Source: Dehalococcoidia bacterium (lineage in GTDB: Bacteria > Chloroflexota > Dehalococcoidia > Lucifugimonadales > UBA3495). From it: a stretch of 64,000 nucleotides of DNA. The notes beneath the pieces were generated by a model. The model did no database searches, was not told the origin of the DNA, and saw only the letters and a list, made by a program, of their open reading frames with translations. The stretch covers positions 15,492-79,491 of the forward strand of contig JAJEIA010000034.1 in NCBI GenBank assembly GCA_022823505.1, written 5' to 3'. How positions within the stretch are numbered: position 1 is the stretch's first letter; each line of letters starts with the position of its first letter. The translations under genes and the position numbers were made by a program. Shown here in pieces: positions 15,420 to 40,155 of the stretch.

Positions 15420-15857
15420 TTATAGCATCAACTCTGCCGGAATTAGACAATGATTTTTGGCGTCGGCAGCCAGCGCGAAAGCTTCTAACGCCACCGCTCC
15501 CAACAGAACCTTGTGAGGATCCGGTCCGAACACTACCTGTACAGTCTTGGTTCTGCCATCCAGGTCCATCAGGGTCTCTCCCAAATCCATCTCGCGTACA
15601 GAACCATCCGCAAGACGGAAGATCGCCATCTCTTCGTGCTGAACGCCCATCTCGTCTAGGATGTGCTCCGGAATTATGACGAATGAAGACCCGGTATCGA
15701 CCACGCCGGTGAGTTCGCGGTGCTGCGTTCCATCTTTATGTCGAATGGCGAAATCAACACTGAAAATCCCCACTTCACCCCCAACCGTGGTACCCGGCAG
15801 TATCGGAGGCCACGTGTATTCGGGAACGTTGATCGTGGCTGGCCGGTGTGTCGTCAT
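15420..15857 (-). CDS. Retropepsin-like single-lobe aspartic protease (paralogue P1)
   Basis: ...LTGVVDTGSSFVIIPEHILDEMGV...RLADGS...LLGAVALEAFALAADAKNHCL. It carries a D-T-G active-site triad and the retropepsin strand order. The ATG at 15857 overlaps the DUF1501 stop (ATGA, 15854-15857). Confidence 0.7.
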   Translation of the reverse strand: MTTHRPATINVPEYTWPPILPGTTVGGEVGIFSVDFAIRHKDGTQHRELTGVVDTGSSFVIIPEHILDEMGVQHEEMAIFRLADGSVREMDLGETLMDLDGRTKTVQVVFGPDPHKVLLGAVALEAFALAADAKNHCLIPAELML

Positions 15858-16984
15858 TGTACAAACTCCGGTTGCTCGAAGCTGCCACCCACCACGGGTT
15901 GCGCATCCAGGCCGAGCCACTTCTCGACCAATGTGCCGTACACGCCGCGGAAGTCGGTGTTGAATGCCAGATCCCCCTCGACCAGGTCGGCTTCGGCGAG
16001 GGATGGGTACTCACTGTACATGCCGCCCCGCACCGGGTCGCCGATGGCGAAGGCAACGCCGCCGCTGCCGTGGTCGGTGCCGCTGCCGTTGTCCTTGACG
16101 CGGCGGCCGAACTCGGTGAAAACCAGCATGACCACGTTGTCTGCGGTGTCGTGCTCCCGCAGGTCGGTGTAGAAATCGTTGACGGCGCGGCTCAGATCGG
16201 ATAGCAGCTTGGGCTGGACGTCGGTCTCGCTGGCGTGGGTGTCGTAGCCGCCCTGCTGGGTGTAGAACACGCGGGTGCCGAGGTTGGCGGTGAGCACTTT
16301 GGCGATGCCCTGGAGATTGCGGCCGATACCGGTTTCCGCGTACTCAACGGTTGAGGTGTACATGTCCGGCGCCGCCTTGAGAATGTCGGCGCCTTTCAGC
16401 GCGTCCAGGCCGGTCTGACCCAGGTAATCCATGGTGGCGCCAAGGCCCACGGTGGGCGAGTACATACGGGCGAAGATGTCCAGGGCCTGCGAACGCTCCG
16501 GCTCGTTGACGATGCCGGTGAGCACGCCGTAGGTCTCCAGCACCGCGACGGAGGCGACGGGTACGCCGGTGAGGGCCATGGCGCGGGGGAGCCCCCGTCC
16601 AAAGTTCACGCCGGTGAGCACGTTTTCCGCTTTGGGGTCCAGGTCGCGAATGACGCGGCCCAGCCAGCCCTCGGTGCCAACCTTCTCAGGTTCGCAGGTG
16701 TGCCAGATGTCCATGCTGCGGAAGTGGGAGCGGTTGGGCGTGGGGTAGCCGATTCCGTTGATGACCGCGACCTTGCCGGCGTCGTACAGGCTCTTGATCT
16801 CCGGAATCGCCGGGTTAAATCCGAAGTGGTCGTCGATGGGCAGCACCTGGTCGGCGGGGATCCCCACGGTGGGCCGGTTGTCGTGGTAACGGCCGTCGGC
16901 GTAGGGTATGACGGTGTTCATGTAGTCGTTGCCGCCGGTGAGCTGGATGACGACGAGGATGGGGTCTTTGGTGGTGGTGGTCAT
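15854..16984 (-). CDS. DUF1501-family protein (sulfatase-fold, unknown function)
   Basis: 376 aa. LVVIQLTGGNDYMNTVIPY...NRSHFRSMDIWHT...GGYDTHA...TEFGRR...GTDHG is the characteristic DUF1501 motif series. Confidence 0.85.
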   Translation of the reverse strand: MTTTTKDPILVVIQLTGGNDYMNTVIPYADGRYHDNRPTVGIPADQVLPIDDHFGFNPAIPEIKSLYDAGKVAVINGIGYPTPNRSHFRSMDIWHTCEPEKVGTEGWLGRVIRDLDPKAENVLTGVNFGRGLPRAMALTGVPVASVAVLETYGVLTGIVNEPERSQALDIFARMYSPTVGLGATMDYLGQTGLDALKGADILKAAPDMYTSTVEYAETGIGRNLQGIAKVLTANLGTRVFYTQQGGYDTHASETDVQPKLLSDLSRAVNDFYTDLREHDTADNVVMLVFTEFGRRVKDNGSGTDHGSGGVAFAIGDPVRGGMYSEYPSLAEADLVEGDLAFNTDFRGVYGTLVEKWLGLDAQPVVGGSFEQPEFVQ

Positions 16985-17070
16985 GGCAACGTGTGCTCCG
17001 CTGGGCGAATATATACAGGTCTGGTTGGTGGGCGTAGTTTAGCACAGGGGTCGCGGATGCAGATGATAAA

Positions 17071-17769
17071 ATGAGCATGCTCATTGACACCATGAGTATT
17101 TCGAGGGTTGCAATGGCTACTACGCGCACTGGTGCAATTCGCCGCTTCACCTCCGCCGAGAGGGAGGCAATGATCGCGGCCGGCATCGTGACGGACGAGG
17201 AACGCGAGGCTCTGGCAGCCGGCCGTCGGTTCACCGTGGATGAATACCTGTTGCTGGGCGCAGCCGGCATACTGGCAAAGGACGAACGCATTGAATTGCT
17301 GGACGGAGAGATAATCCAGATGGCGCCCATCGGCAACCGGCACCGAAACAGCGTGAACTGGTCGGCTGACCTGATGCGCGAGGCCATCGGACGCCTGGCC
17401 ATGGTACAAGTCCAATCTCCCATCCAACTGGACGAATTCACGATGCCTGAGCCGGACATCGCGGTCATCCGGCGGCGTTCCATCAACGATAATGCGCCGG
17501 TTGTGCCGTCCGACGTGTTTTTGCTGGTTGAAGTGGCCGACAGCTCGCTGGAGTTCGACCTGGGGGAGAAATTGGGCCGGTACGCCGCCGCGGGGATACC
17601 GGAGGTCTGGGTTGCCAACCTGCGCGCCGGCGAGTTGGTGGTCAACACTGAGCCGGATGGGGACACTTACGCCAACGTGCGCATTATCCCGCTGGATGGC
17701 GCAGCGAGCCCGCAAGCGTTCCCGGACGTGGTTCTACGGCCAGCAGATTTTATTCCTGCCGTGGACTGA
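17071..17769 (+). CDS. Uma2-family (DUF820) putative restriction-endonuclease-like protein, copy 1
   Basis: FTVDEYLLLGAAGIL...RIELLDGEIIQMAP...PDIAVI...FLLVEVADSSLEFDLGEKLGRYAAAGIPEVWV is the PD-(D/E)xK-type Uma2 pattern. Confidence 0.8.
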   Translation: MSMLIDTMSISRVAMATTRTGAIRRFTSAEREAMIAAGIVTDEEREALAAGRRFTVDEYLLLGAAGILAKDERIELLDGEIIQMAPIGNRHRNSVNWSADLMREAIGRLAMVQVQSPIQLDEFTMPEPDIAVIRRRSINDNAPVVPSDVFLLVEVADSSLEFDLGEKLGRYAAAGIPEVWVANLRAGELVVNTEPDGDTYANVRIIPLDGAASPQAFPDVVLRPADFIPAVD

Positions 17770-17805
17770 TGGCTCGCCCTGGTAGCCCTTTCGCTGGTAT
17801 CGTCC

Positions 17806-18414
17806 ATGGAGGAAGCACAAGAACGCACCACCCCGCTTATCGTGGTCGGCCTGGGGAACCCCGGGCCGCGCTACCGGGATACGCGGCACAACGTGGGCTT
17901 CGGGTGCGTCGACCTGCTGGCCGAGCGATGGGGGATCGCCGTCAAGGACCGTAGGCGCACCACCGTGCTGGGGCACGGCTACCGTGAGGGCAAGGCGGTC
18001 GTCCTGGCCAAACCGCGCACCTTCATGAACCTGTCCGGCGAGTCGGTGGGATACCTGCTGGCGCGGTTTGGCGGGAGGCCGTCGGACCTGATCATCGTTT
18101 ACGACGAGATGGCGCTCCCGCTGGGCCGCATCCGCCTGCGGGCCCGGGGTTCTGACGCCGGACACAACGGGATCAAGCACATCATTCGCACGGTTCACAC
18201 CATCGACTTTCCCCGGCTGCGCATCGGCATCGGCGGACCCGGAATGTCGGGCAGCGTCGATCATGTGCTCGGGCGGTTTTCGGATGACGAGCAACCTGCG
18301 ATGAAAGCGTCCATCGAGCGGGCTGCCGACGCGGTGGAGTGTTGGCTGGTCGACGGAATCGACATCGCGATGAACCGGTACAACACGGATCCACAGGCCG
18401 AGCAGCCAGCGTAG
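17806..18414 (+). CDS. pth: Peptidyl-tRNA hydrolase
   Basis: LIVVGLGNPGPRYRDTRHNVGF...GHNGIKHI. Confidence 0.95.
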   Translation: MEEAQERTTPLIVVGLGNPGPRYRDTRHNVGFGCVDLLAERWGIAVKDRRRTTVLGHGYREGKAVVLAKPRTFMNLSGESVGYLLARFGGRPSDLIIVYDEMALPLGRIRLRARGSDAGHNGIKHIIRTVHTIDFPRLRIGIGGPGMSGSVDHVLGRFSDDEQPAMKASIERAADAVECWLVDGIDIAMNRYNTDPQAEQPA

Positions 18415-18483
18415 AATCGGCACTGGCTGGGGACAGCAGCACGCACGGACGGCAGGCTACCACCCGGCACGAATGGACCGCTA

Positions 18484-20567
18484 TGGACATCAGGCGAATC
18501 ATGATCGGCGCGGCGTTGGCCGCGTTTTTGCTCATTGGGCTGGCCTGCGAAACAGGCTCCTCCGAACCGGCAACCGCGCTTCCCGACCCCACCATCAGCG
18601 CGCCTGCTGATCCGACTGTTGCAAGGACCAATCCGGCGCCGGAATCGACTTCCGTTGTTGCGGCCGGGCCCGGCACTGAGCGACCCGCGGGAGCCCCGCT
18701 GCGCGCAACGGAACCGATGGCGGACACCCAGACAACGGGGCCGGTTGATGTGATGGCGGCGGCCGACTTCCCGGTCCCGGCGGACCGCGACCTGCGTGAG
18801 TTGGCCCGGCAACTGCGGTGGAACGGTGTGGAGCCGGCTCCGGAGCCCGCTCGCTTCGAGGGCCAGTCGCTGGTCGTGGGCGATACGACCGACTTCTGGA
18901 CGCTGGACTACCCCCGCAGCCGGATGGTGAGCAAGGAGTTTGTCCTGGCGGCGGTGTCGGAACACGCCTACTGGTGGGTGGAACAGGGGCTTGAGGTGAG
19001 TGACAATGACCTGCGCCGGACGGTGACGAGCGCCGAGGACCAGGTGTATCCCCGGGTGACCGCCGTTTTTGGCGACGCTCCCGGCTCCGAGGCCGACCCG
19101 CAGCGGGGACACATCATCAACGGGAAGATACCGGGGGTCGGCGGGTACGTGTCCGGCGCGGACCCGCATCCGTCAGCGGTCCAGCCGTACAGCAACGCGG
19201 TGCCGGCGATCTACATCAACGCGCGGGACATCCCCCTGGGCAGCCAGGAGTACCTCACCGTGCTCGCCCACGAGCTGCAGCACGGGATCCACTGGTACGC
19301 CGACCCCACCGAGGAAACCTGGCTCAACGAGGGGCTCTCGGAACTGGCGGTCACCGAGGCGGGATATTCACCGGGCAGCATGCGTTACTACCTGCGGAGT
19401 CCCAACGCGTCGTTGGTCAACTGGCCCAAGGACCTTGATGGTGATATCGGCCGCAACTACGGGGCGGCGGCCCTGTTCGCCCATTATCTGCGGGAGCGCT
19501 ACGCTCCGGAGGGCAGATTGCATGACCTGCTGGCCGGTCCGGACAACGGCATCGCCGCCGTGGACACTTTCCTGGCCGGGCGCGGGGCGGTGTCCCATAC
19601 GGGTGAACCCGCCCGTTTCCGCACGGTATTCGCCGACTGGATCGTGGCCAACCTGCTGGATGACGATGGGGGTCCCCACGGATACGCGGGCCTGAACGTG
19701 GAGGCCAACATCACCAGGACGGAGCGCGTCGGAGACGAAGGGACGAAAGTGTCGCTGCCTCAGTATGGCATCGACTACGTCGAAGTGAAGAATGTCGAAG
19801 GCGACGTGACGATACTTTTCGAGGGCGACGGAGTGACGCGCCTGTTACCCACGAAAGTCCCGCAGGGCGGGTGCTGGTGGAGCAATCGGGGCGACGACAC
19901 TGCGTCCACGCTGACGCGCGAGATAGCCGTGCCTGACGCGCCCTCAAGTGGAGAAGAACCCTCGCTGACGTTCAATCTCTGGTACGACATCGAGGAAGAC
20001 TGGGATTACCTGTACGTCGAGGTGTCCACCGACACGGGAGCAACCTGGGACGTGCTCCCCGCCGACGGCGCCACCGACGCCAACCCAGTGGGCAACAGCT
20101 ACGGCTACGGGTACACCGGATCCGAAGACTGGGCCGAAGTGGCCGTTCCGCTCACCGACTACGCCGGCCAGGATGCGCTGGTGAGGTTCCACTACGTGAC
20201 CGACGACGCCATTCATGGTATCGGGGCCTGCGTGCATGACCCGTCGCTGTCGTGGGAAACCGCCGGCATGGATGGCGCGGACTGGCGGGCGGACGGGTTC
20301 GTGCTGGTCAACAATCGGGTCCAGCAGGACTGGATAGTGTGGGTGATCGAGGACGGCGCGGAGCCGGCGGCGGCGAGGATGGAGTTGGAGTGGGACGCGG
20401 ACAGCCAGCAGTACGCCGGTCACGTGGTCCATCAGCCGGTGGCCGACGGTGGACGGCTGGTCGTGGCGGTGGCCCCGGTGGCGCCGGCAACGATGGAGCG
20501 GGCCAGGTACCGCGTGTGGGCGATCACGGGTGTCCCGGGGCCGCCGAGTGGGCCAGGGCCCGGGTGA
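18484..20567 (+). CDS. Secreted/lipoprotein HExxH zinc metalloprotease (gluzincin-like)
   Basis: MDIRRIMIGAALAAFLLIGLAC is a lipobox-like signal. LAHELQHGIHWYADPTEETWLNEGLSE gives HExxH plus a downstream NEG/E ligand. The start is taken at the internal ATG of track ORF 18339..20567. Confidence 0.75.
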
Positions 20568-21126
20568 GCAGACACTCGGCGAATTCGCGGCGGCCGCCGG
20601 AGCGTTCGCATCCGAAGCAACGCCAGGTGACCGCAGGCAACGACACCTGGAACGACGCGGCATCGTCGCAGAAGGGGCAGGCGCCCGACAATTTCTGACG
20701 CTGGTGGGTGGTACTGCCCAGCTGGGAAAGGGACGTGAACCCGCCCACCAACCGGAGCAGCCGGCCCCGACGCACCGGCCCGGCGGGACCGTCGCCCACG
20801 TCAGGGCGATCCCGCCGGCGCAATTCGGCGAGTAACTCGGGGACGGCCGCCGGCAATTGCGCCCCAACTGGCCGGTGCACCATGGGCGGTTGGTTCCCCA
20901 GGCCAGCGACCCGAGCCATGACGACGACGAGGGTGTACAGACCGGCGCTGCTCAGGGCGGATATGCCGGAGACCAACTCACCGTTGCATGCCGCCCAAAG
21001 ATGATCCACGAACTGGTGCAGGTGGTCGTCGGTGTATTCCGGAAACGGCGTCACCGGCCAATCCGCTGACTCCGCATCCTCGCCCGTGAGAAACAGGTAA
21101 CTGTCCGTCGGAAGCGAGCTGGTCAC
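20524..21126 (-). CDS. Hypothetical protein with a C-terminal primase-type (CHC2-like) zinc ribbon
   Basis: The C-terminus, CPFCDDAASFQVSLPAVTWRCFGCERSGGRREF, resembles the DnaG/CHC2 finger (CPFH...F.V....W.CFGC..G...F), but with Cys in place of His. No Toprim or primase catalytic region follows. It overlaps the convergent protease gene's 3' end by 44 nt. Confidence 0.5.
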   Translation of the reverse strand: MTSSLPTDSYLFLTGEDAESADWPVTPFPEYTDDHLHQFVDHLWAACNGELVSGISALSSAGLYTLVVVMARVAGLGNQPPMVHRPVGAQLPAAVPELLAELRRRDRPDVGDGPAGPVRRGRLLRLVGGFTSLSQLGSTTHQRQKLSGACPFCDDAASFQVSLPAVTWRCFGCERSGGRREFAECLLTRALAHSAAPGHP

Positions 21127-21250
21127 AATGATGAAGACCTCCGGTGAGCGTTGATTCCACGATATGGAATCCCTCGCCGGAGGCGCAACGAGTCGATGTC
21201 AGCAGATTCTCGCCGGGACGGCGGTGGCCTGGCGAACTACGGTCCGGCGG

Positions 21251-22186: not shown

Positions 22187-22296
22187 ACAAGTTCACCTGG
22201 CCGGTCACGTTCGGGTTTCTTTGGCTCACGCACGGTGGTCATGGAGCGTTTTATAACCCAAGCTTGCCGGTGCGACAAGGACTGGAGCAGTCTCAC

Positions 22297-22422
22297 GCGT
22301 ACCCAGTTTGTCATCGCGAGGAGCGTAGCGACGTGGCGGTCTCGTTGCCGGAAGAGCCGGTCCGGCCCCGACGGGATCGCTACGCTTCGCTCGCGATGAC
22401 ATTGCTTACAAACTGGGTACGC
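22297..22422. repeat. Imperfect palindromic intergenic element of about 126 bp (REP/MITE-like)
   Basis: The left arm, 22297-22331 (gcgtacccagtttgtcatcgcgaggagcgtagcga), is the reverse complement of the right arm, 22377-22422 (tcgctacgcttcgctcgcgatgac attgcttac aaactgggtacgc), apart from a 9-nt insertion and a small indel. It lies between nudC and the SBP56 gene. Only spurious short ORFs cross it. Confidence 0.5.
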
Positions 22423-22534
22423 ATCGGTCCGAAACGCGTGTTGCCCTGCCACCACCGGCCAATTAGAATGCCGTCACGCTAAATCGATGGCGTAACCGGT
22501 GGCAGGATCACACGAGATAGAGGAGACCGGACAG

Positions 22535-24674: not shown

Positions 24675-24935
24675 CGGTCAATCCCAGGATCAGCAGCGGC
24701 AAACGCACGCGGATGCGTTCGGGGACCCCGGTTGGTGAATGGAACGCAAAGGAGACCAGCAGGGCGGCGAATGTTCGACCGCCGACGTGTTGACGGATGG
24801 CCGGCGCCGTCTATTTCGGTAGTCGACGGTCAGGTTCAGTGACGCCGCAGACCGCGCCCGGCGAAGTCTTCGTGATCGACCGGGCGGCATTGGGCCCAGC
24901 GGCATTGGGCCCGGCGGAGCCCGGCCGGCTCGCCG

Positions 24936-27216: not shown

Positions 27217-27226
27217 CGCCTGCCGG

Positions 27227-28654: not shown

Positions 28655-29008
28655 ATGGGTACTTTCCGTATTGAAATCAGCGTAGCCGGATTGGATGGCG
28701 ATAATCCGGCGACAGTAACGGCTTTGGTCGACACTGGGGCCACTCATTCCATGATGCCGGCATCGTTGCTGCACAGACTGGGCATCACACCTACCCGGCA
28801 GCGTACCTTCACTATGGCTGACGGCAGGACTGAGACGTACGATATAGGCGCGGCCATGATTTCGGTCGGCGCTGAAGTCATGCCGTGCCCGGTCATTTTC
28901 GGCAGGGAAGGGCGTTATCTGCTGGGGGCCACGACATTGGAGAACTTCGACCTGGCCGTCGACCCGGTGAACCAGAAGCTGACGCCGGTGGCAGAGCTTA
29001 CGATCTGA
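28655..29008 (+). CDS. Retropepsin-like single-lobe aspartic protease (paralogue P2)
   Basis: 117 aa. ...VTALVDTGATHSMMPASLLHRLGI...TMADGRT...LLGATTLENFDLAVDPVNQKL. Confidence 0.75.
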   Translation: MGTFRIEISVAGLDGDNPATVTALVDTGATHSMMPASLLHRLGITPTRQRTFTMADGRTETYDIGAAMISVGAEVMPCPVIFGREGRYLLGATTLENFDLAVDPVNQKLTPVAELTI

Positions 29009-29046: not shown

Positions 29047-29775
29047 CTACCCTTGCGCCGGGAAACGAGGTAACGGACCAAGATGATCGGGAGCAATCCC
29101 AGCGAGACTGCCAATCATGCGTTCCAATCCCCATGCGGGATCGAGAAAGTGGAGACCATCCACATTGCTGTCAGGGTGCCTGACGCGTAAATCATCGCGA
29201 AGCCCGAGATGGTCCGTCTCTGGAGCTAACACCGATACCAAGTCGTCCCAGGCAAAAGTAAGGGCACCTACCTTCCGCCATTCGCGTTCCCACCAAAATT
29301 CGCTCCTGCTGGATTGCCAAGTCCCCATCACTTCGAAAAATGGTGTGAGCTGAAAAATTTCGTCGTTGTACCGTTGTTCTGCGATAGCCCTGTTCATTAG
29401 AACGTCAACGTGGTTGACCAACCAGTGATGGCCGGGAGTGGCATCGATGTACCAGACGGGGTTAAGTCCTCGCTGTCGTGCCCAGATTTTTGTGAACACC
29501 ACACCATACGGTTCGAGTTGGATCTGGCGGCCTTGAATATCCGTGGCGAACGTCCAGGAATGTTCGAGTGGAGTTTCTGTGAAGCAGACCACTTCTTGGC
29601 CGGGCACTTCCCGATCTTTTGCTTTTCCTAGCTTAGTCACTGCGTTCAAGCGACGTTCGGATAAGATATTCAATAGATTGTCGCGAGCAGACGTGTCCTC
29701 TTGGTTTCGAGTAAAGTGAACCAAGAAAGTGGACAGATCAAGCCTGCGGTTAAGCAGGGATTCGATGGTCGTCAT
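29047..29775 (-). CDS. AbiGi-like (abortive-infection-associated family) protein, orphan
   Basis: FLVHFT...LLNILSE...VVCFTETPLEH...EPYGVVFTKIWARQRGLNPVWY...EREWR matches my recollection of the AbiGi-family pattern (HFT ... vCF.d.PL ... YG.ygi.f.K.W....GlnPV.Y ... EREWR). GC is clearly lower than in the flanks. The start is taken at the internal ATG 29775. Confidence 0.5.
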   Translation of the reverse strand: MTTIESLLNRRLDLSTFLVHFTRNQEDTSARDNLLNILSERRLNAVTKLGKAKDREVPGQEVVCFTETPLEHSWTFATDIQGRQIQLEPYGVVFTKIWARQRGLNPVWYIDATPGHHWLVNHVDVLMNRAIAEQRYNDEIFQLTPFFEVMGTWQSSRSEFWWEREWRKVGALTFAWDDLVSVLAPETDHLGLRDDLRVRHPDSNVDGLHFLDPAWGLERMIGSLAGIAPDHLGPLPRFPAQG

Positions 29776-29839
29776 GCAACCCCCGTTGCACAGAAGTGGT
29801 AAAGTCGGCTTTGAAAATTTCTTTTCTACTTTACTGGCA

Positions 29840-31063
29840 CTAAACCGCACCGGCCCTCGCCAGCGCCGCCAAATCCTGCGCCGCGCAGCCCAGCAGCCCG
29901 CAGTACACCTCCACGTTGTGCTCGCCCAATAGCGGCGCGCGCGTTAGCCGGGTGGGGGTTTCGCTGAGCTGGAAGGGGGCGCCGGTGTATTCCAGGGGGC
30001 CGGTGGCAGGGTGGTCCACCTCGGAGTAGAAGGCGCGCTCGCGTTGCTGGGGGCTTTGGAACACCTCTGACGGCGTGTAGTAGGGCGCGATGGGGACGCC
30101 GTGAGCCTGGCCCTCGGCATAGAGCCACTCGCGAGTGTGCTGGGAGAACCACTCCCGCATGTGCCGGTTCAGTTCGGGGCCGTGAGTGGCCGGGTCGCTG
30201 AACATCTCGGATGATGCCCAGTCGGGGTTGCCCATGAAGGCCAGCAGACCCTCGAACTGGCGCGGCTCCAGGGTCAGCAGCTCCACGTAGCCGTCGGACG
30301 CCGGCAACACGCCGCCGACGCGGAAGTACCGGGAGAAGCGGGTCTCGGTGATGCCTTCCGACTCGTGCCGCTGGATGGGCATGTAGCCGACCGATAGCTG
30401 GGCCTCCTGGGTCGAGGCGTCCACCACCTGGCCTCGTTGGCCGCCGTCGGCTCCCAGGCGGTTGTACACGGCGGCCAGCGCGCCGACGGCAGCGGTCAGG
30501 CCGGCCTGGTAGTCGCCCATGTTGGCGCCGGCGACGATGGGCGGCCGGTCGGGGAAGGTGTCCAACGCGACGCCGTTGGGCAGCAGCCAACCCTCTCCGC
30601 CGGCGTGGAACACCGCCAAGTGTCCGGCGTGATAATCGGCGTAGGGGCCGGCGCTGCCGAAGGGCGTGACGGCGCTGACGATGACGTCTGGATTGGCGGC
30701 GAGAAGGGAGTCAGAGTCGAGGCCGACAGAGGCGGCGTTGGCCGGAGTGTAGTCATGCACCACCATGTCCACGCTGGCTACCAGTTGGCGCAGCAGGTGC
30801 CGGCCGGCTGGGTTTTCAAGGTCCAGCGTGATGCTCAGCTTCCCTGTATTCAGGTACAGGAACAGACCGCTGCGCTCCGGATGGGGCTGGTCATCCGGGA
30901 ATGGGCCGCGACGGCGCCCAGGATCGCCAACACCCGGCGGCTCCGCCTTGATGACGTTCGCGCCCAGCGATGCAAGCAGCTTGCCGCAGTAGGGGCCGGG
31001 GATGAGGGAGGCGATCTCCAGGACCCGGAGGTTGGGCAGGGTGGTGGGAAGATTCGAACTCAT
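29840..31063 (-). CDS. Family III CoA-transferase (CaiB/BaiF-like), copy 2
   Basis: MSSNLPTTLPNLRVLEIASLIPGPYCGKLLASLGANVIKAE.... An alternative GTG start at 31105 would overlap the upstream protease stop (GTGA). Confidence 0.9.
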   Translation of the reverse strand: MSSNLPTTLPNLRVLEIASLIPGPYCGKLLASLGANVIKAEPPGVGDPGRRRGPFPDDQPHPERSGLFLYLNTGKLSITLDLENPAGRHLLRQLVASVDMVVHDYTPANAASVGLDSDSLLAANPDVIVSAVTPFGSAGPYADYHAGHLAVFHAGGEGWLLPNGVALDTFPDRPPIVAGANMGDYQAGLTAAVGALAAVYNRLGADGGQRGQVVDASTQEAQLSVGYMPIQRHESEGITETRFSRYFRVGGVLPASDGYVELLTLEPRQFEGLLAFMGNPDWASSEMFSDPATHGPELNRHMREWFSQHTREWLYAEGQAHGVPIAPYYTPSEVFQSPQQRERAFYSEVDHPATGPLEYTGAPFQLSETPTRLTRAPLLGEHNVEVYCGLLGCAAQDLAALARAGAV

Positions 31064-31101: not shown

Positions 31102-31506
31102 TCACAGCAGGAATGGCGGGCCGATCTCGTCACGCGGCCGCTGTTCCATTCGCTCGTTTACCAGATCGACGTTGAACCCCAGATCCTGCAACAACCGGTA
31201 GCCCACCAGCGGCACCGCAGCCGGCACGGCGCCATTCACGAAGCCGGTTCCTTCCAGCATACCGACTGCTATGTATATGGGAGTTTGCCTGATGGTCCCG
31301 TCGGCGGTCATTAACTCAGCCGCCGCGTTGGGCACCGTGTCCAAACCCAGCGCATCGATGTCGGCTTGGGGAATGCCCAGCCAGGTAGCGCCCGTGTCGA
31401 CCAGAAAGTCGTACTCGCGCGTCTCGGTCTTGCCGGTGATACTTCCCTTGGCGTAAGTGATTCCCACTTTGTACCTTCTGCCGCCATTCAATCTGTCGTC
31501 TTTCAA
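31102..31506 (-). CDS. Retropepsin-like single-lobe aspartic protease (paralogue P3)
   Basis: 134 aa. ...EYDFLVDTGATWLGIPQADIDALGL...MTADGT...LVGYRLLQDLGFNVDLVNERM. Confidence 0.7.
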   Translation of the reverse strand: MKDDRLNGGRRYKVGITYAKGSITGKTETREYDFLVDTGATWLGIPQADIDALGLDTVPNAAAELMTADGTIRQTPIYIAVGMLEGTGFVNGAVPAAVPLVGYRLLQDLGFNVDLVNERMEQRPRDEIGPPFLL

Positions 31507-31619
31507 TTGATGCGTGCCGTATCGCCATTCAGGCGTCGGGTTTTCCGATTATAAGTTCACGCGACCCTCGATCCAACATGCGACATTTGCAAACGCCTGG
31601 ATCTGGGGGCGCAGACGGC

Positions 31620-32627
31620 TCACGAATCGTTGCTGCCCAGGAACCAGCCCGAGGTGGGCACCGGCCCGTCGCCCCGGTAGATGCTCTGGGCGTAGGCCGT
31701 CAGCGCGGCGCCGGAGACCAGCGTCAGGGCGGAGACGAACAGCCAGATCAGGATGATCAGCATCGATGCCAGCGGGCCGTAGAACAACCGCTGGGGCGCG
31801 ATGTAGGAGAAGAACAGCGCGAACACGTAAGAGGCCGCTTCGAAGATGATGCTGGCGCTGACCGCGCCCAGGATGGCCCAACGCCAGTGCACCGTCCGTT
31901 CCGGCACGTAGCGGTAGACGAGCAGGAACACCGCCACCGAAAGGAGCCAGGCCAGCAGGCTCGGCCACCAGCGCTGAGCCTCCACCGCGTTGGCCAGACC
32001 GCCCAGTTGGATCGCCCGCAGCGCGTCGACTGCGAGATCAGGAACGGTGACGTAGGTGAGCACGGAGGAAATCAACAGCCCGATGGCCATGGCGCTGAGG
32101 AACAGGTACGCGCGGGTCTTGCCAACGACGCCCACTTGGGCCGGCTCGATCCCCCAAGCTCGGTTGACCACGAGCCCAACCGCTCCGAACAGCTTGAAGC
32201 TGCCCCATAACAGGCCAAGCAGGGCCACCAGTCCGGTGGCGCCCGCAACAGCCGGCGGTTGTGATGGCCACAGGGTCGAAACATCGACATTCGGGGGAAG
32301 CACGCCGGAGGAAATTGAGGCGAACCAGGTGCGCGCGCCGGCGTCACCCAACAACAGGGGAAGGATCTGCAGGACGACCACCGAGAACGGCAGCAGGGAA
32401 ACCATCCCGTAGTAGGCGACGCCAGCCATGAGTTGCTGGTTGTCGTTACGCGTCACCGCCGATACGGTCGCCAGCACCAGCCGCACCGAGCTCCGGCGCT
32501 GCGCCAACCGCTGGATACCACGACGCAGATGCAGCGCCTGCAGCACCGGCCGGATCCGCAACAAGCGCCGGTTGCGGGTCGCCCAGTCGGCCGCCTGGTG
32601 CAGTTTCGCTTCAAAGGACGCCATCAA
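31620..32627 (-). CDS. YihY/BrkB-family (formerly ribonuclease BN-like) membrane protein
   Basis: 335 aa and polytopic. ...AGVAYYGMVSLLPFSVV... and a C-terminal ...ALTLVSGAALTA are typical YihY features. Confidence 0.75.
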   Translation of the reverse strand: MMASFEAKLHQAADWATRNRRLLRIRPVLQALHLRRGIQRLAQRRSSVRLVLATVSAVTRNDNQQLMAGVAYYGMVSLLPFSVVVLQILPLLLGDAGARTWFASISSGVLPPNVDVSTLWPSQPPAVAGATGLVALLGLLWGSFKLFGAVGLVVNRAWGIEPAQVGVVGKTRAYLFLSAMAIGLLISSVLTYVTVPDLAVDALRAIQLGGLANAVEAQRWWPSLLAWLLSVAVFLLVYRYVPERTVHWRWAILGAVSASIIFEAASYVFALFFSYIAPQRLFYGPLASMLIILIWLFVSALTLVSGAALTAYAQSIYRGDGPVPTSGWFLGSNDS

Positions 32628-32630
32628 ACG

Positions 32631-33191: not shown

Positions 33192-33193
33192 AC

Positions 33194-34030: not shown

Positions 34031-34063
34031 AGGATTACCCCGCCATCCGGGACGAGCCCGCGG

Positions 34064-34723
34064 TCACCGGGCAAACGCTCGCTCGACATCTTCGTGGCTG
34101 CCGACGACCACCAGGATGTCACCATCATCGATCATTTCCTCTTCGGCCGGATTGATAATATATTCGTTGCCCCGCCGTATGACCATCACGGCGACGTGAT
34201 GCCGCGTTGATTCGGAGACGAGGCCAGCGTCCCGCAGGGACAGGCCGCGCATTTTTTCGGGCGGCCGCAACTTGTGCACCCCGGTGTCGTCGGTGATGTG
34301 CATGAACTCGACGTAATTGGGGCTCAGGTCCAGGCTGGCCGCGCGCTCGGCGGCCTCTTCCTCGGGAAAGATCACCTTGTCCGCGCCGACGCGATGCAGG
34401 ATCTCCGCGTGCTGGGTGTCCGTGGCCCGCGCGATGACGTAGGGCAACCCCATGGATTTGAGCATCATCGTGGTGATGATGCTGGACTGGATCTGGCTGC
34501 CCAGGGCCACGACGGCCACGTCCATGTCTCCGACGCCGAGGTCGCGCAGAGCGGTCTCGTTGGTTGCGTTGGCCTCTACGGCGTAGGTGACGCGGCCGAG
34601 CATTTCCTGCACGCGCTGCTCATCCTGATCGATAGCCAGCACCTCGTGTTCCCGTTGGAACAACGTGCTGGCCAGCTTCGCTCCGAACCGGCCCAAACCG
34701 ATCACGCATACTTGCTTTGCCAT
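34064..34723 (-). CDS. trkA: Trk/Ktr potassium uptake NAD-binding subunit
   Basis: VCVIGLGRFGAKLA Rossmann motif and a C-terminal RCK_C region; lies adjacent to trkH. Confidence 0.9.
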   Translation of the reverse strand: MAKQVCVIGLGRFGAKLASTLFQREHEVLAIDQDEQRVQEMLGRVTYAVEANATNETALRDLGVGDMDVAVVALGSQIQSSIITTMMLKSMGLPYVIARATDTQHAEILHRVGADKVIFPEEEAAERAASLDLSPNYVEFMHITDDTGVHKLRPPEKMRGLSLRDAGLVSESTRHHVAVMVIRRGNEYIINPAEEEMIDDGDILVVVGSHEDVERAFAR

Positions 34724-34728
34724 GATGA

Positions 34729-36252
34729 CTAACCAATTCTAACGGGTTCTTCGGGGTAGCGGTAGGTGGCGTCTTCCCGGGGAGTGAGCAGCATGACGAG
34801 GGTCAGAGGACCCACCCGGCCAACCAGCATCGTGATCATGAATATGATCGAACCGGCCAGGCTGAGTTCGCTGGATACTCCGGTGGACATCCCGTTGGTG
34901 CCGAACGCCGAGACCGTCTCGAACATCAACGGCAAAAACGGCAGGTGGGGGTCGGTGTAGGTGAGAATGGGCAAAACGATGGAAAGGAACGTCACCCCGA
35001 GCAACGCCACCAGCAGCGCGCGGGACACCAGAACGGGGGCGATCTCACGACGGAAAATCTCCGTGGTGGGGTGGCGCAGGGCCGAAGACCGGGCGGCGGC
35101 CAGGAGCACCGCCACCGTGTTCACCTTGATCCCGCCGGCCACGGACGCGGTGGACCCGCCGATGAACATCAGGCCGGCGAACACCAGCTGGGTGAAGTCT
35201 CGGGTGGCGCTCCAGTCCAGCGCGGCGAACCCCGCCGTGCGCCCGCTGACCCCGTGAAAAATCGCCGAGCCCACGACACCGTGGCCGGAATGGTCCCACA
35301 GCACGCCGTTCCATTCGGCGAACAGGAACGCCAGCGCGCTGAACCCGTAGAGGAAGGTGGTAAGGATCAGAACCAGCTTGGTGTCAAGACTGAACCGCTG
35401 GAAGTTGAACAGGAAAAGGCCCATCAAACGCCGCCGCGACCGGCTGGGGCTCCAGTTCCGCCGCATGTCCATGATGAAGGGCCAGCCCAGGGCGCCGGCG
35501 ATGATCAACGGGGTTATGACCCACATCAGGTACGGGTGCGCTCCCAGGGTCTCCGCATTGCTGCCGCCTGGAGTGTTGGGCAGGATCGAGAAACCGGCGT
35601 TGTTGAGCGCTGAAACCGAGAGAAACAGCGACTGCCAGACGGCCTCCAGGGTCGTGAAGTCCGCCACCGACCGCATGCGCACAAATATCAAAGCGGCGCC
35701 CGCCAGGTAGCCGATGAAGAACGCAACGACGATGTTGCGCGCCACGCGGGTCAGGTTTCGTGCCGAAACGTCACCGACGGTATCCTGGTACACGTCCTCT
35801 TCGAGCGCCGTTGCCCGCCGGCCGATGAAAGCGATCAACACGGTGGCGGCCGTGATGAACTCCAGTCCTCCCACCAGCATCAGCACGAAGATGACGGCCT
35901 TGCCGAACTGGGACCAGAATTCCGGCGTGTCCACCACGGTGAGGCCGGTGACGGTGGAGGCCGAAATCGCGGTGAAGAATGCCACCCGCAGGCTGGCCGC
36001 GATTCCGTCGGCGGTGGATATGGGCAGCGCCAGCATCGCGCTCCCGACCACGTTCAGCAGGAGGAACGTGAGGAGCAGCAGCAGCGGCGTCGAGGACCAG
36101 CGGCGCGGCGGGGTGCGGTGGCGGCGTATGGGAATGCGAACCGGGTCGACCCGCCGCACGCGCCACGACGTGTTGCCTTCGCCGGACGGGTCGAGCACGG
36201 TCGCCGCTTCCGGCTCGGTGGAGCCGGCGTTACCGTGGGACGGAACGTTCAC
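34729..36252 (-). CDS. trkH: TrkH/KtrB-family potassium transporter membrane subunit
   Basis: 507 aa and polytopic, with repeated selectivity-filter-like segments (SASTVTGLT, NNAGFS, GGSTASVAGGIK, FGTNGMSTG). Confidence 0.9.
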   Translation of the reverse strand: MNVPSHGNAGSTEPEAATVLDPSGEGNTSWRVRRVDPVRIPIRRHRTPPRRWSSTPLLLLLTFLLLNVVGSAMLALPISTADGIAASLRVAFFTAISASTVTGLTVVDTPEFWSQFGKAVIFVLMLVGGLEFITAATVLIAFIGRRATALEEDVYQDTVGDVSARNLTRVARNIVVAFFIGYLAGAALIFVRMRSVADFTTLEAVWQSLFLSVSALNNAGFSILPNTPGGSNAETLGAHPYLMWVITPLIIAGALGWPFIMDMRRNWSPSRSRRRLMGLFLFNFQRFSLDTKLVLILTTFLYGFSALAFLFAEWNGVLWDHSGHGVVGSAIFHGVSGRTAGFAALDWSATRDFTQLVFAGLMFIGGSTASVAGGIKVNTVAVLLAAARSSALRHPTTEIFRREIAPVLVSRALLVALLGVTFLSIVLPILTYTDPHLPFLPLMFETVSAFGTNGMSTGVSSELSLAGSIIFMITMLVGRVGPLTLVMLLTPREDATYRYPEEPVRIG

Positions 36253-36335
36253 TGAGAGGCACCGGACGCTGGTTGGAGCGCAAATTGAGGATGCCGGGTG
36301 CGTTGATGATCAGGGCGCCTTGCGCAGGCAGCGTA

Positions 36336-36363
36336 ATTATGACCGGGCTCTGGGATATGTCAA
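36336..36363 (-). promoter_or_regulatory. Sigma70-like promoter for trkH-trkA
   Basis: On the minus strand: TTGACA (36363-36358), a 16-nt spacer, then CATAAT (36341-36336), about 80 nt upstream of the trkH start. Confidence 0.4.
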
Positions 36364-36570
36364 TCGCAAATGCCAGCTCGCGCACATCCGGTGGCGTCCG
36401 CCGGAGAGCCACACAATCCGGGTTGTTCGCGCAAGCCGGCGATGCGGATTTCCCGGCCGACCATCGCACCCCACGGAGGGGCACGCACCGATAGCAGTTG
36501 CCGGTTTCGAGTCGCGCTCGCCGGTTTGTGTTAACATTCCGGGTGAAACCACGTTACAGAGGGAGGCACC

Positions 36571-36909
36571 ATGGGCTCCATACGACTGTACACTGGCGAC
36601 GACGGCCATTCCCACATTGAAGCGATCGACCCACCGTCCCATCCGGAGTGGAGCCAGTTGCACAATGCCAAGGGGATCATATTCCGCTCCTCGCCTCCGG
36701 GGTACTTCAGCGACTGGCACGTGGCGCCCCGCCGCCAGTACATCATCACCCTTTCCGGAGAAGCGGAAATCGGCCTTGCGGACGGTACCGTCCACCGGCT
36801 GGGCCCCGGCGACGTGAACCTTGCCGAGGACCTCACCGGCCACGGTCACACGACGCGCGTGGTCGGCGACGTTCCCCGGGTAACGGCCACCATTCACCTG
36901 GACGACTGA
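36571..36909 (+). CDS. Small cupin-fold protein
   Basis: 112 aa. ...DWHVAPRRQYIITLSGEAEIGLADGTVHRLGPGDVNLAEDLTGHGHTT is a beta-barrel cupin-like pattern. A GGGAGG RBS lies upstream. Confidence 0.55.
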   Translation: MGSIRLYTGDDGHSHIEAIDPPSHPEWSQLHNAKGIIFRSSPPGYFSDWHVAPRRQYIITLSGEAEIGLADGTVHRLGPGDVNLAEDLTGHGHTTRVVGDVPRVTATIHLDD

Positions 36910-36987
36910 GGGAAGCAAACCCGGCGTGCGCGCGGTCCCGACTGCGGGTGACCACGCGCACGAGCGTACCCGCTTTCGTAAATCGTC

Positions 36988-37092
36988 GGAAGCAGGATTT
37001 TCAAGATTTGCGGATTTGCCAGGATTGCAACCGTTCTCCGGTGGAAACATCCCAATCCTGGCAATTCCTAAAATCCCGTAAATCCCGATTCC
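36988..37092. repeat. Inverted array of GGATTT-type 9-mers (imperfect palindrome of about 105 bp)
   Basis: The left arm, 36988-37027, is four tandem units of about 9 nt (gcaggattt tcaagattt gcggatttg ccaggattg). The right arm, 37053-37092, is the approximate reverse complement (caatcctgg caattccta aaatcccgt aaatcccga). About 31 of 40 positions are complementary, and a 25-bp spacer separates the arms. Confidence 0.4.
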
Positions 37093-37180
37093 GACTTTCG
37101 CAACTGCAGATCAGGTGCGGTCCGTTGCCCGGCCTGGGGCCGCGTCAGCGAACGCCGGGCGGCCCGACCGGTCGGCCTGG

Positions 37181-37189
37181 TGGTATACT
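37181..37189 (+). promoter_or_regulatory. Extended -10 element (TGGTATACT) upstream of leuS
   Basis: TGnTATACT at 37181-37189. The identical 9-mer recurs upstream of the aldolase gene at 48987-48995. Confidence 0.3.
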
Positions 37190-37308
37190 GGCAGCCGCCG
37201 CGGGGACCCATAATGATGCGTGTGCTATATTGAGGGTCGCCAGACGTACGTTTGCTGGGCGCCTTCGCCGCTGCCGCCCGCGCCCACTATATTGAGGGTT
37301 GCCTTTTT

Positions 37309-39786
37309 ATGACCACAGCCCAGCGTCAAGTTGAGCTCCGATTCGACGCGGTCGAGATTGACCGCAAGTGGCAGGAGCGGTGGGAACGCGACGGGATCTA
37401 TCGGGTGGACGACAACGACCCCCGCCCGAAGTGGTTCGAAATGACCATGTATCCGTACCCGTCGGGCGACCTGCACATCGGTCACTGGTACGCCATGGCG
37501 CCGTCGGACGCTCACGCCCGGTTCCGCCGCATGCAGGGCTACAACGTGCTGCATCCCATCGGCTTTGACGCCTTCGGCCTGCCCGCCGAAAACGCGGCCA
37601 TTTCCCGCGGTATCCACCCCTACGAATGGACCATGTCCAACGTGGAGAACATGCGTCGGCAGCTCCGTTCCATCGGGGCGGTCTACGACTGGGACCGGGA
37701 AGTCGTCTGCTGCCTGCCGGAGTACTACCGCTGGAACCAGTGGTTTTTCATCAAGCTATACGAGCGCGGCCTGGCCTACCGGGAGAAGGCTCCCGTCGTG
37801 TGGTGTCCATCGTGCCAGACCGTGCTGGCCAACGAGCAGGTGCTCAACGGCGAGTGCGAGCGATGCGAAACGCCCATCACCCGCCGCGACTTCGAGCAGT
37901 GGTTCTTCCGCATCACGGACTACGCCGACGAGCTGCTGGACTTCGATACGCTGGAGGAGTGGCCGGACAAGATCCTCACCATGCAGCGGAATTGGATCGG
38001 CCGCAGCGAGGGCGTGGAGATCGGGTTTGACATATCCGATTACAACATCGAGGAGCGGGAGATACGCACCTTCACCACGCGCATCGACACCATATTCGGC
38101 GTGACGTTCCTCGTGTTGGCGCCGGAGCACCCCCTGGTGGCCAAACTCACGACGGAGGGTCGCCGGGCGGACGTCGAAGCCTACGTCGACCAGGCTCGCG
38201 CCGCTTCTGAAATCGACCGTCTGTCGGCCGACCGGGAAAAGACCGGCGTATTCATCGGGGCCTACGCGCGCAACCGTCTGAACAACGAGAAGGTGCCCAT
38301 CTACGTGGCCGACTATGTCCTGACCACCTACGGCACCGGCGCGGTGATGGGCGTTCCGGCCCACGACCACCGTGACTTTGATTTCGCGCGCAAGTACCGC
38401 CTGCCCATCCGCACCGTCATTGCTCCCATAACCTGGGACGGAAGCCCGCCCGAGGAAGCCTTCATCGGCGATGGGTTCATGACCGACTCCGGCGCGTACG
38501 AGGGCATGACCAACGAGGAGGGCATGGAGGCCATCGCGAATGACGTGGAACGACGGGGCTGGGGTCGCCGCGCCGTCACCTACCGCCTGCGCGACTGGCT
38601 CATTTCCCGGCAACGTTACTGGGGTACGCCCATCCCCATGGTCTATTGCGATCAGTGCGGGGTGCAGCCGGTGCCGGAGGCGGACCTGCCCGTGCTGCTG
38701 CCCGAAGACGCCGAGTTCCGGCCCACCGGGGAATCGCCGCTGGCCATCAACGAGTCCTTCGTGAACACGGAGTGCCCCAGGTGCGGAGGGCCGGGCCGGC
38801 GGGAAACCGACACCATGGACACCTTCATGGACTCGTCGTGGTACATGCTCCGCTACTGCACTCCGCAGTACGGAGACGGACCGTTTGAGCCGCAGGTGGC
38901 CTCCGACTGGATGCCCGTCCAGCAATACACCGGCGGCGCTGAGCACGCGGTGATGCACCTGCTATACAGCCGGTTCTTCATCAAGTCGCTGCGGGACATG
39001 GGCATGCTCGACATGGACGAGCCGTTCCTGCGCCTGTTCAACCAGGGGGTGATCCTGGGCAGCGACCACGAGAAGATGAGCAAGAGCCGCGGCAACGTCG
39101 TCAATCCCGACGACGTGGTCGGCCAGGTAGGCGCCGACGCGGTGCGCTGCTTCCTCATGTTCATCGGCCCCTGGGACCAGGGTGGGCCGTGGAGCGACGA
39201 GGGCATCAACGGCGTGGTCCGCTGGCTCAACCGCGCCTCTAACCTGGTGGAACACGACGCCGCGCAGTTGGACGACAGCGCCACCGACGCCGCGACGGTG
39301 CGCGAAACCCAGCGGATACTCCACCAGACCATCCGCAAGTGCTACGAAGACCTGGACAAGTTCAAGTTCAACACCACCATCGCCTCACTGATGGAACTGG
39401 TGAACCACCTGAGCCGGGTATGGAACGACGGCCCGGTGGACAGCACCACCTGGCGAGACTGCATCGAGAAGTTCCTGCTGATGCTCGCCCCCATCGCACC
39501 ACACGTGGCGGAAGAATGGTGGGAGCGAACCGGTCATGGCTACAGCATCCACCAGCAGCCCTTCCCCACTTGGGACGAAGAAATGGCGGCGGAGGACGAG
39601 CTCACTCTGGTGGTGCAGGTCAACGGCCGGCTCCGCGACCGGATCACGGTGCCCGCCAGCATCGGCGATGACGACGCCCGGGAACGCGCGCTGGAGAGCC
39701 CCCGGATCCAGTCCCACATCGACGGCAAGACCGTGCGCAACGTGGTGTACGTCCCGGGTCGGCTGGTCAACGTGGTGGTGGGGTAG
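37309..39786 (+). CDS. leuS: Leucine--tRNA ligase
   Basis: Class I HIGH motif (DLHIGHWY) and KMSKS (EKMSKSRGN). The total is about 825 aa from the ATG at 37309. The 19-codon upstream extension in the track starts at a TTG and looks unnecessary. Confidence 0.95.
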   Translation: MTTAQRQVELRFDAVEIDRKWQERWERDGIYRVDDNDPRPKWFEMTMYPYPSGDLHIGHWYAMAPSDAHARFRRMQGYNVLHPIGFDAFGLPAENAAISRGIHPYEWTMSNVENMRRQLRSIGAVYDWDREVVCCLPEYYRWNQWFFIKLYERGLAYREKAPVVWCPSCQTVLANEQVLNGECERCETPITRRDFEQWFFRITDYADELLDFDTLEEWPDKILTMQRNWIGRSEGVEIGFDISDYNIEEREIRTFTTRIDTIFGVTFLVLAPEHPLVAKLTTEGRRADVEAYVDQARAASEIDRLSADREKTGVFIGAYARNRLNNEKVPIYVADYVLTTYGTGAVMGVPAHDHRDFDFARKYRLPIRTVIAPITWDGSPPEEAFIGDGFMTDSGAYEGMTNEEGMEAIANDVERRGWGRRAVTYRLRDWLISRQRYWGTPIPMVYCDQCGVQPVPEADLPVLLPEDAEFRPTGESPLAINESFVNTECPRCGGPGRRETDTMDTFMDSSWYMLRYCTPQYGDGPFEPQVASDWMPVQQYTGGAEHAVMHLLYSRFFIKSLRDMGMLDMDEPFLRLFNQGVILGSDHEKMSKSRGNVVNPDDVVGQVGADAVRCFLMFIGPWDQGGPWSDEGINGVVRWLNRASNLVEHDAAQLDDSATDAATVRETQRILHQTIRKCYEDLDKFKFNTTIASLMELVNHLSRVWNDGPVDSTTWRDCIEKFLLMLAPIAPHVAEEWWERTGHGYSIHQQPFPTWDEEMAAEDELTLVVQVNGRLRDRITVPASIGDDDARERALESPRIQSHIDGKTVRNVVYVPGRLVNVVVG

Positions 39787-39798
39787 CGGAAGAACATT

Positions 39799-40155
39799 AT
39801 GGGCGAAGTTCGGACTATGTTGGGGATCTGGGCTGCTGACGGTTCAGAATTGCAGCACATAGACATGCGGGTCGATACCGGAGCTTCTTATAGCCAGCTT
39901 CCCGGCAAATTGCTGAGGGATCTGGGCTGGGTTCCCACATTTCCGCGACTCCTTGCCGACTTGGCCGATGGCACGCAAACGACAGTGGAATTGGGGGAAG
40001 TTCGCATCCACTACAACGGGGCAGACCTGACCCGCCTTTTCGTGTTCGGCGAGGACAATTGTCCGAAACTATTGGGCAGCGACACCTTGCAGGGGTTACG
40101 CTTGGGCGTGGATCCGGTCAATCACCGACTAATCAACGTAGCGGTCTATCGCTAA
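39799..40155 (+). CDS. Retropepsin-like single-lobe aspartic protease (paralogue P4)
   Basis: 118 aa. ...HIDMRVDTGASYSQLPGKLLRDLGW...LADGTQ...LLGSDTLQGLRLGVDPVNHRL. It starts 12 nt after the leuS stop. Confidence 0.7.
   Translation: MGEVRTMLGIWAADGSELQHIDMRVDTGASYSQLPGKLLRDLGWVPTFPRLLADLADGTQTTVELGEVRIHYNGADLTRLFVFGEDNCPKLLGSDTLQGLRLGVDPVNHRLINVAVYR

Follow-up and report, generated by a model that had tools for sequence, protein, structure and literature searches.

We show that a 64,000-nucleotide (nt) stretch of a Dehalococcoidia contig (JAJEIA010000034.1, positions 15,492 to 79,491, referred to here as the window) carries four stand-alone genes for small retropepsin-like aspartic proteases, pr1 to pr4, and comparison with related genomes indicates that these genes are probably accessory, single-gene insertions, spread by recombination, of a large and uncharacterised family of cytoplasmic proteases. 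The family as such is already known, although functionally uncharacterised; the new element is the evidence that its members behave as accessory, insertion-type genes with rapid turnover. The window matches a sponge-metagenome contig, and its nearest genomes are metagenome-assembled genomes of the SAR202 cluster/Dehalococcoidia, with leuS genes up to 96% identical. The leuS locus was fetched from the 80 nearest GTDB species, in addition to one earlier locus, and scanned with a profile of the family; copy numbers given below refer to the window and the fetched loci of relatives (named by L numbers). The proteases (lengths in amino acids, aa) and two associated stretches are as follows:

15420-15857, minus strand: pr1, a retropepsin-like protein of 145 aa with the motif VDTGS; its ATG start and the stop codon of DUF1501 overlap as ATGA.
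28655-29008, plus strand: pr2, a retropepsin-like protein of 117 aa with VDTGA; it is oriented divergently to the SDR gene and has 145 nt of spacer upstream.
31102-31467, minus strand: pr3, 121 aa with VDTGA, start revised to GTG 31467; between the BrkB and family III CoA-transferase genes.
39799-40155, plus strand: pr4, 118 aa with VDTGA; the leuS stop codon lies 12 nt before it and cbiC 129 nt after it.
31468-31634, minus strand: the spacer upstream of pr3, taken to have arrived together with it, within the stretch of about 586 nt that is missing at empty sites (alignment with L058, L010, L011 and L013).
40156-40284, plus strand: the 129-nt tail between pr4 and cbiC, kept in one-copy relatives and replaced by a putatively dead paralogue in two-copy relatives.

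The junction between leuS and cbiC, which holds pr4 in the window, carries one protease gene in seven genomes (window included) and two in six, and it is empty in L015, L016, L017, L053 and L057, relatives with leuS genes 82-87% identical in which the leuS-cbiC gap is 0-104 nt. No relative with leuS below 86% identity had a protease gene behind it. On the leuS tree its distribution is patchy, with none in L016 and two in its sister L002, and several gains or losses are therefore needed to account for it. Moreover, two types of the gene behind leuS exist, with about 50% identity between them, and they contradict the leuS phylogeny: the leuS genes of L011 and L019 are 97% identical and their proteases 51%, those of L014 and L063 are 95% identical and their proteases 50%, and in L063 and L019 leuS genes of 89% identity go with proteases of 81%. 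Two-copy relatives carry a second paralogue behind the pr4 orthologue (L002:6378-6743, L014:8864-9229, L019:8870-9235 and L063:8873-9235), which is fragmented in L010 and L013. In the four intact cases it reads VKANTGA, with Asp changed to Asn, and its flap reads PWGWP in place of ADG; from these substitutions we predict a conserved, catalytically dead copy adjoining an active one. The 129-nt tail between pr4 and cbiC was considered as a decayed second copy and rejected, having no significant similarity. Upstream of leuS, the window holds an AT-rich inverted repeat at 36985-37095, with 43-nt arms (81% complementary) and a 25-nt loop, and in other sponge samples many contigs break at 36964 and 37016.

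At the junction between the BrkB and CoA-transferase genes, the window has a gap of 586 nt that holds pr3 and its upstream spacer, compared with 63-78 nt and no pr3 in L058, L010, L011 and L013, the leuS genes of which are 93-94% identical. L169 has pr3 in the same site, L171 has a Uma2 gene separating pr3 from the transferase, and in L007 a pr3 of 74% identity is flanked by unrelated genes. A similar picture emerges for pr2, where nucleotide homology to L008, L173 and L174 spans the SDR gene and pr2 and ends exactly at the pr2 stop codon (29008). Beyond that point lies the AbiGi-like gene in the window, an ADP-ribosylglycohydrolase gene in L008, and transposase genes in L173 and L174. In L169 and L171, the SDR and CoA-transferase genes stand as in the window, and pr2 is absent between them. 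Conversely, L008, L173 and L174 have an extra protease copy behind an enoyl-CoA hydratase (ECH) gene, a place where the window has none (about 24675-24935). In other sponge samples, contig depth falls to near zero over pr2/AbiGi and over pr3, with the flanking genes still covered.

Some further features of these sites are worth recording. The AbiGi-like gene (29047-29850, minus strand) is of low GC content (GC 0.52; GC at third codon positions, GC3, 0.54) and occupies a variable slot between pr2 and the CoA-transferase gene; its match to AbiGi is weak (Pfam expectation value, E, 2e-6; PADLOC E 1.5e-3), and the slot holds an HD-domain gene in L169. The extra copy at the ECH site (L173:1-1746, L174:401-2469) is followed by GmrSD in L173 and by a fusion of a methyltransferase (MTase) with Mrr in L174. 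In L173, and in L174 too, a 216-nt direct repeat, 73% identical (L173:5710-5925 and L173:6426-6641), brackets the pr2 orthologue. The repeat is a duplicated 5' end of the SDR gene that occurs neither in the window nor in L008, and it may be the scar of the recombination that put the gene there, a hint at how such genes are inserted and spread.

As for pr1, a gene 78% identical lies behind DUF1501 in L006, where homology extends as far as the pr1 stop codon, with two more paralogues behind it; in the paralogue at L006:6571-6924, DTR replaces DTG. The gene that follows pr1 in the window (14191-15450, minus strand) encodes an NYN-domain protein whose C-terminal part holds two repeats, each about 45 aa long (FRASDAQ... 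and FKASDAQ...), and its true start is probably ATG 15402, not the TTG that overlaps pr1. This NYN gene is absent from L006, and in L172 it is 70% identical, compared with 93-95% for the flanking genes.

The density of these genes had been called unusual in the original prediction, a model's reading of the window alone, which raised a lineage-specific expansion as one of two possibilities, and both points are borne out. No family member was detected in 64 more distant leuS-centred Dehalococcoidia loci (828 kb), and no protease in 80 DUF1501-centred loci of more distant Dehalococcoidia (at most 79% identity, 525 kb). This protease-free DNA totals about 1.35 Mb, in about 144 loci carrying the same neighbour genes, and it places the density in the window far above background and the expansion in the sponge-associated SAR202/Dehalococcoidia clade. 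In our literature search, we found no paper on expansions of this protease family in Chloroflexota or sponge symbionts. Since orthologue-like proteins form a separate set for each paralogue (57 at 56-91% identity for pr1, mostly 85-95% for pr2, 93 homologues at 74-98% for pr3, and 64-93% for pr4), the four protease lineages are old. The original prediction also held that copies proving to be conserved syntenic partners of their neighbours across distant taxa would be operon members rather than insertions. What we found is synteny in close relatives only, together with empty sites and extra copies, so that the insertion interpretation survives; the lack of a conserved partnership across distant taxa suggests that the proteases are lineage-restricted additions.

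These data bear directly on the possibility that pr1-pr4 are ordinary housekeeping or regulatory operon proteases that, for example, process or regulate LeuRS, the DUF1501 protein or the CoA-transferase. Such a role would suit the tight upstream spacing (the ATGA overlap and the 12-nt gap), the synteny kept in close relatives and the purifying selection described below, but it is hard to reconcile with protease-free orthologous sites in genomes whose neighbour genes are 82-94% identical, with the complete absence of the family from the more distant loci that carry the same neighbours, with pr3 orthologues in unrelated contexts, and with a single family standing beside four unrelated neighbours. 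We therefore regard an operon partnership as improbable.

Composition and selection were also compared between the proteases and their surroundings. Every protease copy, in the window and in relatives, has a lower GC content and a lower GC3 than its neighbours. In the window, protease GC3 is 0.59-0.75 (0.59 for pr1), set against a mean of 0.81 (standard deviation 0.085) for genes of at least 150 aa and 0.80-0.91 for the neighbours. Pairwise ratios of nonsynonymous to synonymous substitution (dN/dS) against orthologues are 0.03-0.14 for pr2, pr3 and pr4 (0.026 for pr2), and for pr1 the proportion of nonsynonymous differences (pN) is 0.14 with synonymous sites saturated; low dN/dS speaks for a reshuffling of old alleles and not for rapid adaptive change. 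Taken as a whole, accessory dynamics of the insertion type are very probable for these genes.

The window also holds two genes of the Uma2 family (PF05685), one at 17071-17769 on the plus strand and one at 41886-42626 on the plus strand, which separates cbiX from cbiD within the cbi operon. Of the close relatives, 8 have the latter and 9 lack it, a gene-sized polymorphism like that of the proteases. The cbi operon, which starts at 40285, has no riboswitch match of its own; the sole Rfam match in the window is a cobalamin riboswitch far away at 62096-62320 on the plus strand (RF00174, 72 bits), unrelated to the proteases.

Several observations weigh against the interpretation of pr1-pr4 as accessory insertions of a known protease family. 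In L172, a closer relative with pr1 87% identical, the whole order Pth...Uma2-DUF1501-pr1-NYN-M20 is common with the window, so that the context of pr1, NYN and Uma2 included, is fully conserved, and close relatives yielded no empty pr1 site. A useful cellular function would likewise account for the strong purifying selection and for the long persistence of the genes in some lineages, and the lower GC3 may be due to low expression instead of a foreign origin. The leuS tree, from which the direction of gains and losses is taken, is a single-gene neighbour-joining tree. The sole RNA evidence is a metatranscriptome contig from a relative, which runs from leuS through 313 nt of diverged sequence into cbiC and may be DNA carry-over; the RNA contigs are from diverged relatives and give weak evidence for co-transcription of leuS and pr4, and for the pr2-pr3 region no RNA runs are listed. 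With regard to family assignment, pr2 and pr3 score above the Pfam gathering thresholds for PF13975 (28.2 bits) and PF13650 (24.3 bits), at 44.2/44.4 and 35.4/30.1 bits respectively, but pr1 (25.3/22.5 bits) and pr4 (21.3/19.2 bits) fall narrowly below them. All four proteins are under the NCBIfam curated cut-offs of 57.35 bits for TIGR03698 and 57.95 bits for TIGR02281 (clan_AA_DTGA), with scores of 27-47 bits against about 57, the best being 47.5 bits for pr2 (TIGR03698) and 35.6 bits for pr3 (TIGR02281). On these scores, pr1-pr4 are related to the TIGR03698 and TIGR02281 subfamilies without being members of them.

The gene calls themselves agree with those first proposed: four open reading frames (ORFs) of one architecture lie where they had been placed, alignment and profile scan uphold the shared architecture, and only the start of pr3 had to be revised. 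Pairwise identities among pr1-pr4 are 27-30% over an end-to-end alignment (A1) with the invariant columns V-D-T-G, A-D-G, G..L..L and D..N. An L(L/V)G motif, its glycine invariant in A1, is likewise common to all four, and pr1 has an N-terminal extension of 28 aa (W-PPILPGTTVGG). A hidden Markov model of pr1-pr4, run against all six-frame segments of the 64,000-nt window, returned exactly these four and no further copy. The longest ORF for pr3 is 31102-31506 on the minus strand (134 aa); because nearly all of its 93 homologues are about 121 aa long and cover 90% of this longer ORF, GTG 31467 is the likely start. The four neighbours named at the outset (DUF1501, SDR, family III CoA-transferase and leuS) were confirmed, but the surroundings are not the purely housekeeping DNA that had been described, as two Uma2 genes, the NYN-domain gene and the low-GC AbiGi-like gene also stand beside proteases. 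Similarly, of the tight spacings proposed, the sequence does show the ATGA overlap of DUF1501 with pr1 and the gap of 12 nt that separates pr4 from leuS, but the GTGA overlap of pr3 with the CoA-transferase gene is doubtful and probably not genuine, with homology of the transferase to its relatives starting about 40-55 nt further downstream.

Several lines of evidence uphold the retropepsin fold proposed for these proteins. Pfam families PF13975 and PF13650 match all four (E 3e-11 to 4e-4), as does NCBIfam TIGR03698 (clan_AA_DTGF) over the full length (E 2e-12 to 5e-6). A sequence profile search of the PDB returned ApRick first (5c9d, E 4e-4), followed by the RVP domains of DDI1 (E 0.005-0.016, full domain). 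A structure model was made for pr4, to which pr1, pr2 and pr3 are tied through the alignment; this AlphaFold model, built on an alignment of 79 sequences (A2), has a mean predicted local distance difference test score of 92.6. In a Foldseek search of the PDB with it, all top 50 matches were HIV-1, SIV, XMRV or EIAV proteases or ApRick, and template modelling scores (target-normalised) were 0.62-0.73 against the retroviral proteases, over approximately the whole chain and at 12-22% identity. Together, the profiles and the model predict that pr1-pr4 are stand-alone, single-lobe proteins of the retropepsin fold in clan AA.

Conservation of the catalytic motif in homologues, which had been suggested as a check, was also found: of 213 close homologues, 197 retain D-T/S-G, as do 139 of the 146 family representatives. 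The hydrophobic-hydrophobic-Gly motif, LLG or LVG in pr1-pr4, takes the form L/M/I-L/V/M-G in 77 of the 79 A2 sequences. Characterised retropepsins need to dimerise, with one active site formed from two Asp residues. In all likelihood, pr1-pr4 are active dimeric aspartic peptidases of this type, and since their N-termini, as read from the sequences, are not hydrophobic, a cytoplasmic location is most likely. The family at large comprises 7,590 clusters at 50% identity (E at most 1e-3) and consists mostly of stand-alone proteins, the median length being 124 aa. Among its members, P0214 (301 aa) and P0215 (749 aa) are predicted polypeptides with two and four retropepsin lobes, respectively, and D-T/S-G in each lobe; they may have arisen by natural fusion of tandem copies, or the gene calls may have read through. 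In P0187 and P0192 (163 aa, pr3 clade), DNG or DAG replaces DTG and the flap is deleted, and an N-terminal extension of about 45 aa resembles, by eye, a BrnA/DUF4415-type antitoxin (...DAPEI.DWSQAKRG).

The same profile matches raise the idea that pr1-pr4 are remnants of retroelements or prophages, or were captured from retrotransposons of the sponge host. The best Pfam matches are PF13975 (gag-polyprotein aspartyl protease) and PF13650, which are mostly discussed for eukaryotic transposable elements, and the organism lives in a sponge. Nevertheless, no reverse transcriptase, integrase, gag or phage genes adjoin the proteases, whose neighbours are cellular; full-length matches tie them to the prokaryotic TIGR03698, alongside thousands of stand-alone members of 117-130 aa; and there are no PHROG, phage or viral-contig matches. 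An origin of this kind is thus highly improbable.

Returning to the interpretation that we favour, of accessory genes that came in singly, each protease would have been inserted at a junction that ends a conserved gene or block: DUF1501|NYN, SDR|variable island, BrkB|CoA-transferase and leuS|cbiC. The event would have been a rare illegitimate insertion, after which homologous recombination between conserved flanks would have spread or replaced the gene, so that the gene would need no mobility function of its own; recombination is, by inference, the most likely route of spread. Once in place, the genes would pass vertically over short ranges and would also be lost, duplicated in tandem, occasionally inactivated, or replaced by divergent alleles. 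Copies such as pr1 and pr4 would ride on the transcription and translation of the upstream gene, by way of the ATGA overlap and the 12-nt gap. Their products, monomers of 117-145 aa with one DTG lobe, an ADG flap and a hydrophobic-hydrophobic-Gly motif, would dimerise to form an active site from two Asp residues.

The insertion of gene-sized units also calls to mind integron-type or other site-specific gene cassettes. Units of this kind would be gene-sized, partly promoter-less and in the same orientation as the upstream gene, as pr1 and pr4 are, and 0, 1 or 2 units do occur at one site. Contrary to this idea, the window has neither attC-like inverted repeats or shared flanks nor an integrase, and the junctions differ between sites. 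Across 13-42 kb of the window, searches for flanking direct or inverted repeats and attC-like sites gave chance-level matches only, with no terminal repeats; the window has no tRNA genes as integration targets and no recombinase or other mobility gene beside the proteases. It is accordingly very unlikely that pr1-pr4 are cassettes, and homologous recombination in conserved flanks is the route that we prefer.

What these proteases do for, or to, their host is a separate question. The four neighbours are functionally unrelated, and copies in relatives often stand at the edges of variable DNA with GmrSD, MTase-Mrr, AbiGi-like, HD, Uma2 and transposase genes, a combination that favours a flexible gene pool and cytoplasmic targets of the proteases' own. 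It is plausible, though less likely than not, that they have a conflict- or stress-related role, like Uma2, toxin-antitoxin or defence genes, rather than one in the pathways of their neighbours. The original prediction had gone further in considering selfish or addiction-like modules that insert next to essential genes. A selfish or addiction role is possible, but the proteases have no partner or mobility gene and no repeats at their flanks in the window, and they gave no match in the PADLOC, PHROG, plasmid and phage searches; moreover, only leuS among the neighbours is essential, the other sites bordering variable, defence-like or mobile DNA.

A specific form of this idea is that the proteases are toxin-antitoxin or defence-like conflict modules, in which a toxic or abortive protease is kept by addiction or phage pressure and, in some genomes, is neutralised by an adjoining dead paralogue through inactive heterodimers. 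Patchy presence, alleles incongruent with the host tree, low GC3 and a location at the borders of islands with AbiGi-like, GmrSD, MTase-Mrr, HD and transposase genes would all be expected under such a model, as would the tandem pairs of an active and a dead copy in relatives (NTG in L002, L014, L019 and L063; DTR in L006). The only literature link between retropepsins and conflict that we found, counted here in favour of the model, is that small retropepsin genes adjoin type III CRISPR loci in Sulfolobales (PMC3973734). On the other hand, a small partner ORF stands beside none of the four window proteases, as had been noted from the start, and pairs of active and dead copies occur only in relatives; dN/dS is low in pairwise comparisons, not diversifying. 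That PADLOC gave no match for the four proteases likewise counts against a conflict module; its only match here is the weak one to AbiGi for the neighbour at 29047-29850. In addition, the proteases had no PHROG match, a tblastn search with pr2 found nothing among PLSDB plasmids or INPHARED phages, and IMG/VR scans with pr3 and pr4 gave no match. We therefore consider conflict modules an unlikely explanation. More doubtful still is a minimal, hitherto unrecognised class of such modules in which a toxic or abortive DTG effector, held in check by heterodimerisation with a dead NTG or DTR paralogue, spreads from strain to strain as a single gene; if it existed, the four solitary copies in the window would be orphan effectors or would be restrained in trans.

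Whatever their targets, the accessory protease genes described here give access to a huge family of stand-alone bacterial retropepsins, the function of which is almost wholly obscure. In sponge-symbiont SAR202/Dehalococcoidia, its copies behave as genes of the flexible genome, with presence or absence at exact junctions, allele swapping, tandem arrays, in some cases with putatively dead paralogues, and candidate two- and four-lobe fusions. They thereby offer a natural series for the duplication of single-lobe aspartic proteases and, possibly, for evolution towards bilobal enzymes.

Among known systems, pr1-pr4 are closest to the stand-alone clan-AA families of bacteria and archaea, PF13975 (gag-asp_proteas)/PF13650 (Asp_protease_2), TIGR03698 and TIGR02281, with which they share size, a single DTG lobe and full-length profile matches, and for which, to our knowledge, no function is established; compared with TIGR03698, the window proteins have DTGA or DTGS instead of DTGF. 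Among solved structures, the best sequence match, also found by Foldseek, is the bacterial retropepsin-like ApRick/APRc of Rickettsia conorii (RC1339; PDB 5c9b, 5c9d and 5c9f). APRc is reportedly membrane-associated through an N-terminal transmembrane region and acts at the cell envelope, whereas the window proteases have no hydrophobic N-terminus and begin directly at the first beta-strand. Retroviral proteases (HIV-1, SIV, XMRV and EIAV) have the same fold, but the window proteins are outside any gag-pol polyprotein and have no retroelement genes nearby. DDI1 is a eukaryotic protein, and its RVP domain is matched in profile over the full domain, though the window proteases lack the UBL and UBA domains of DDI1. 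With the scattered small genes of Uma2 and toxin-antitoxin type, pr1-pr4 have only their genomic behaviour in common (single genes, patchy presence, lower GC3); the folds are unrelated, and, in contrast to toxin-antitoxin-type families, no antitoxin-like partner adjoins the window proteases. Finally, Pseudomonas has small retropepsin-like peptidases in RimB, which is cytoplasmic, and RloA, which has a signal peptide (PMC12239564). These belong to a different family, the 'zinc protease domain' of the PDB 9g59 type scoring E 0.57, and, compared with them, the window proteases stand without a rimK/ATP-grasp partner and without a signal peptide.

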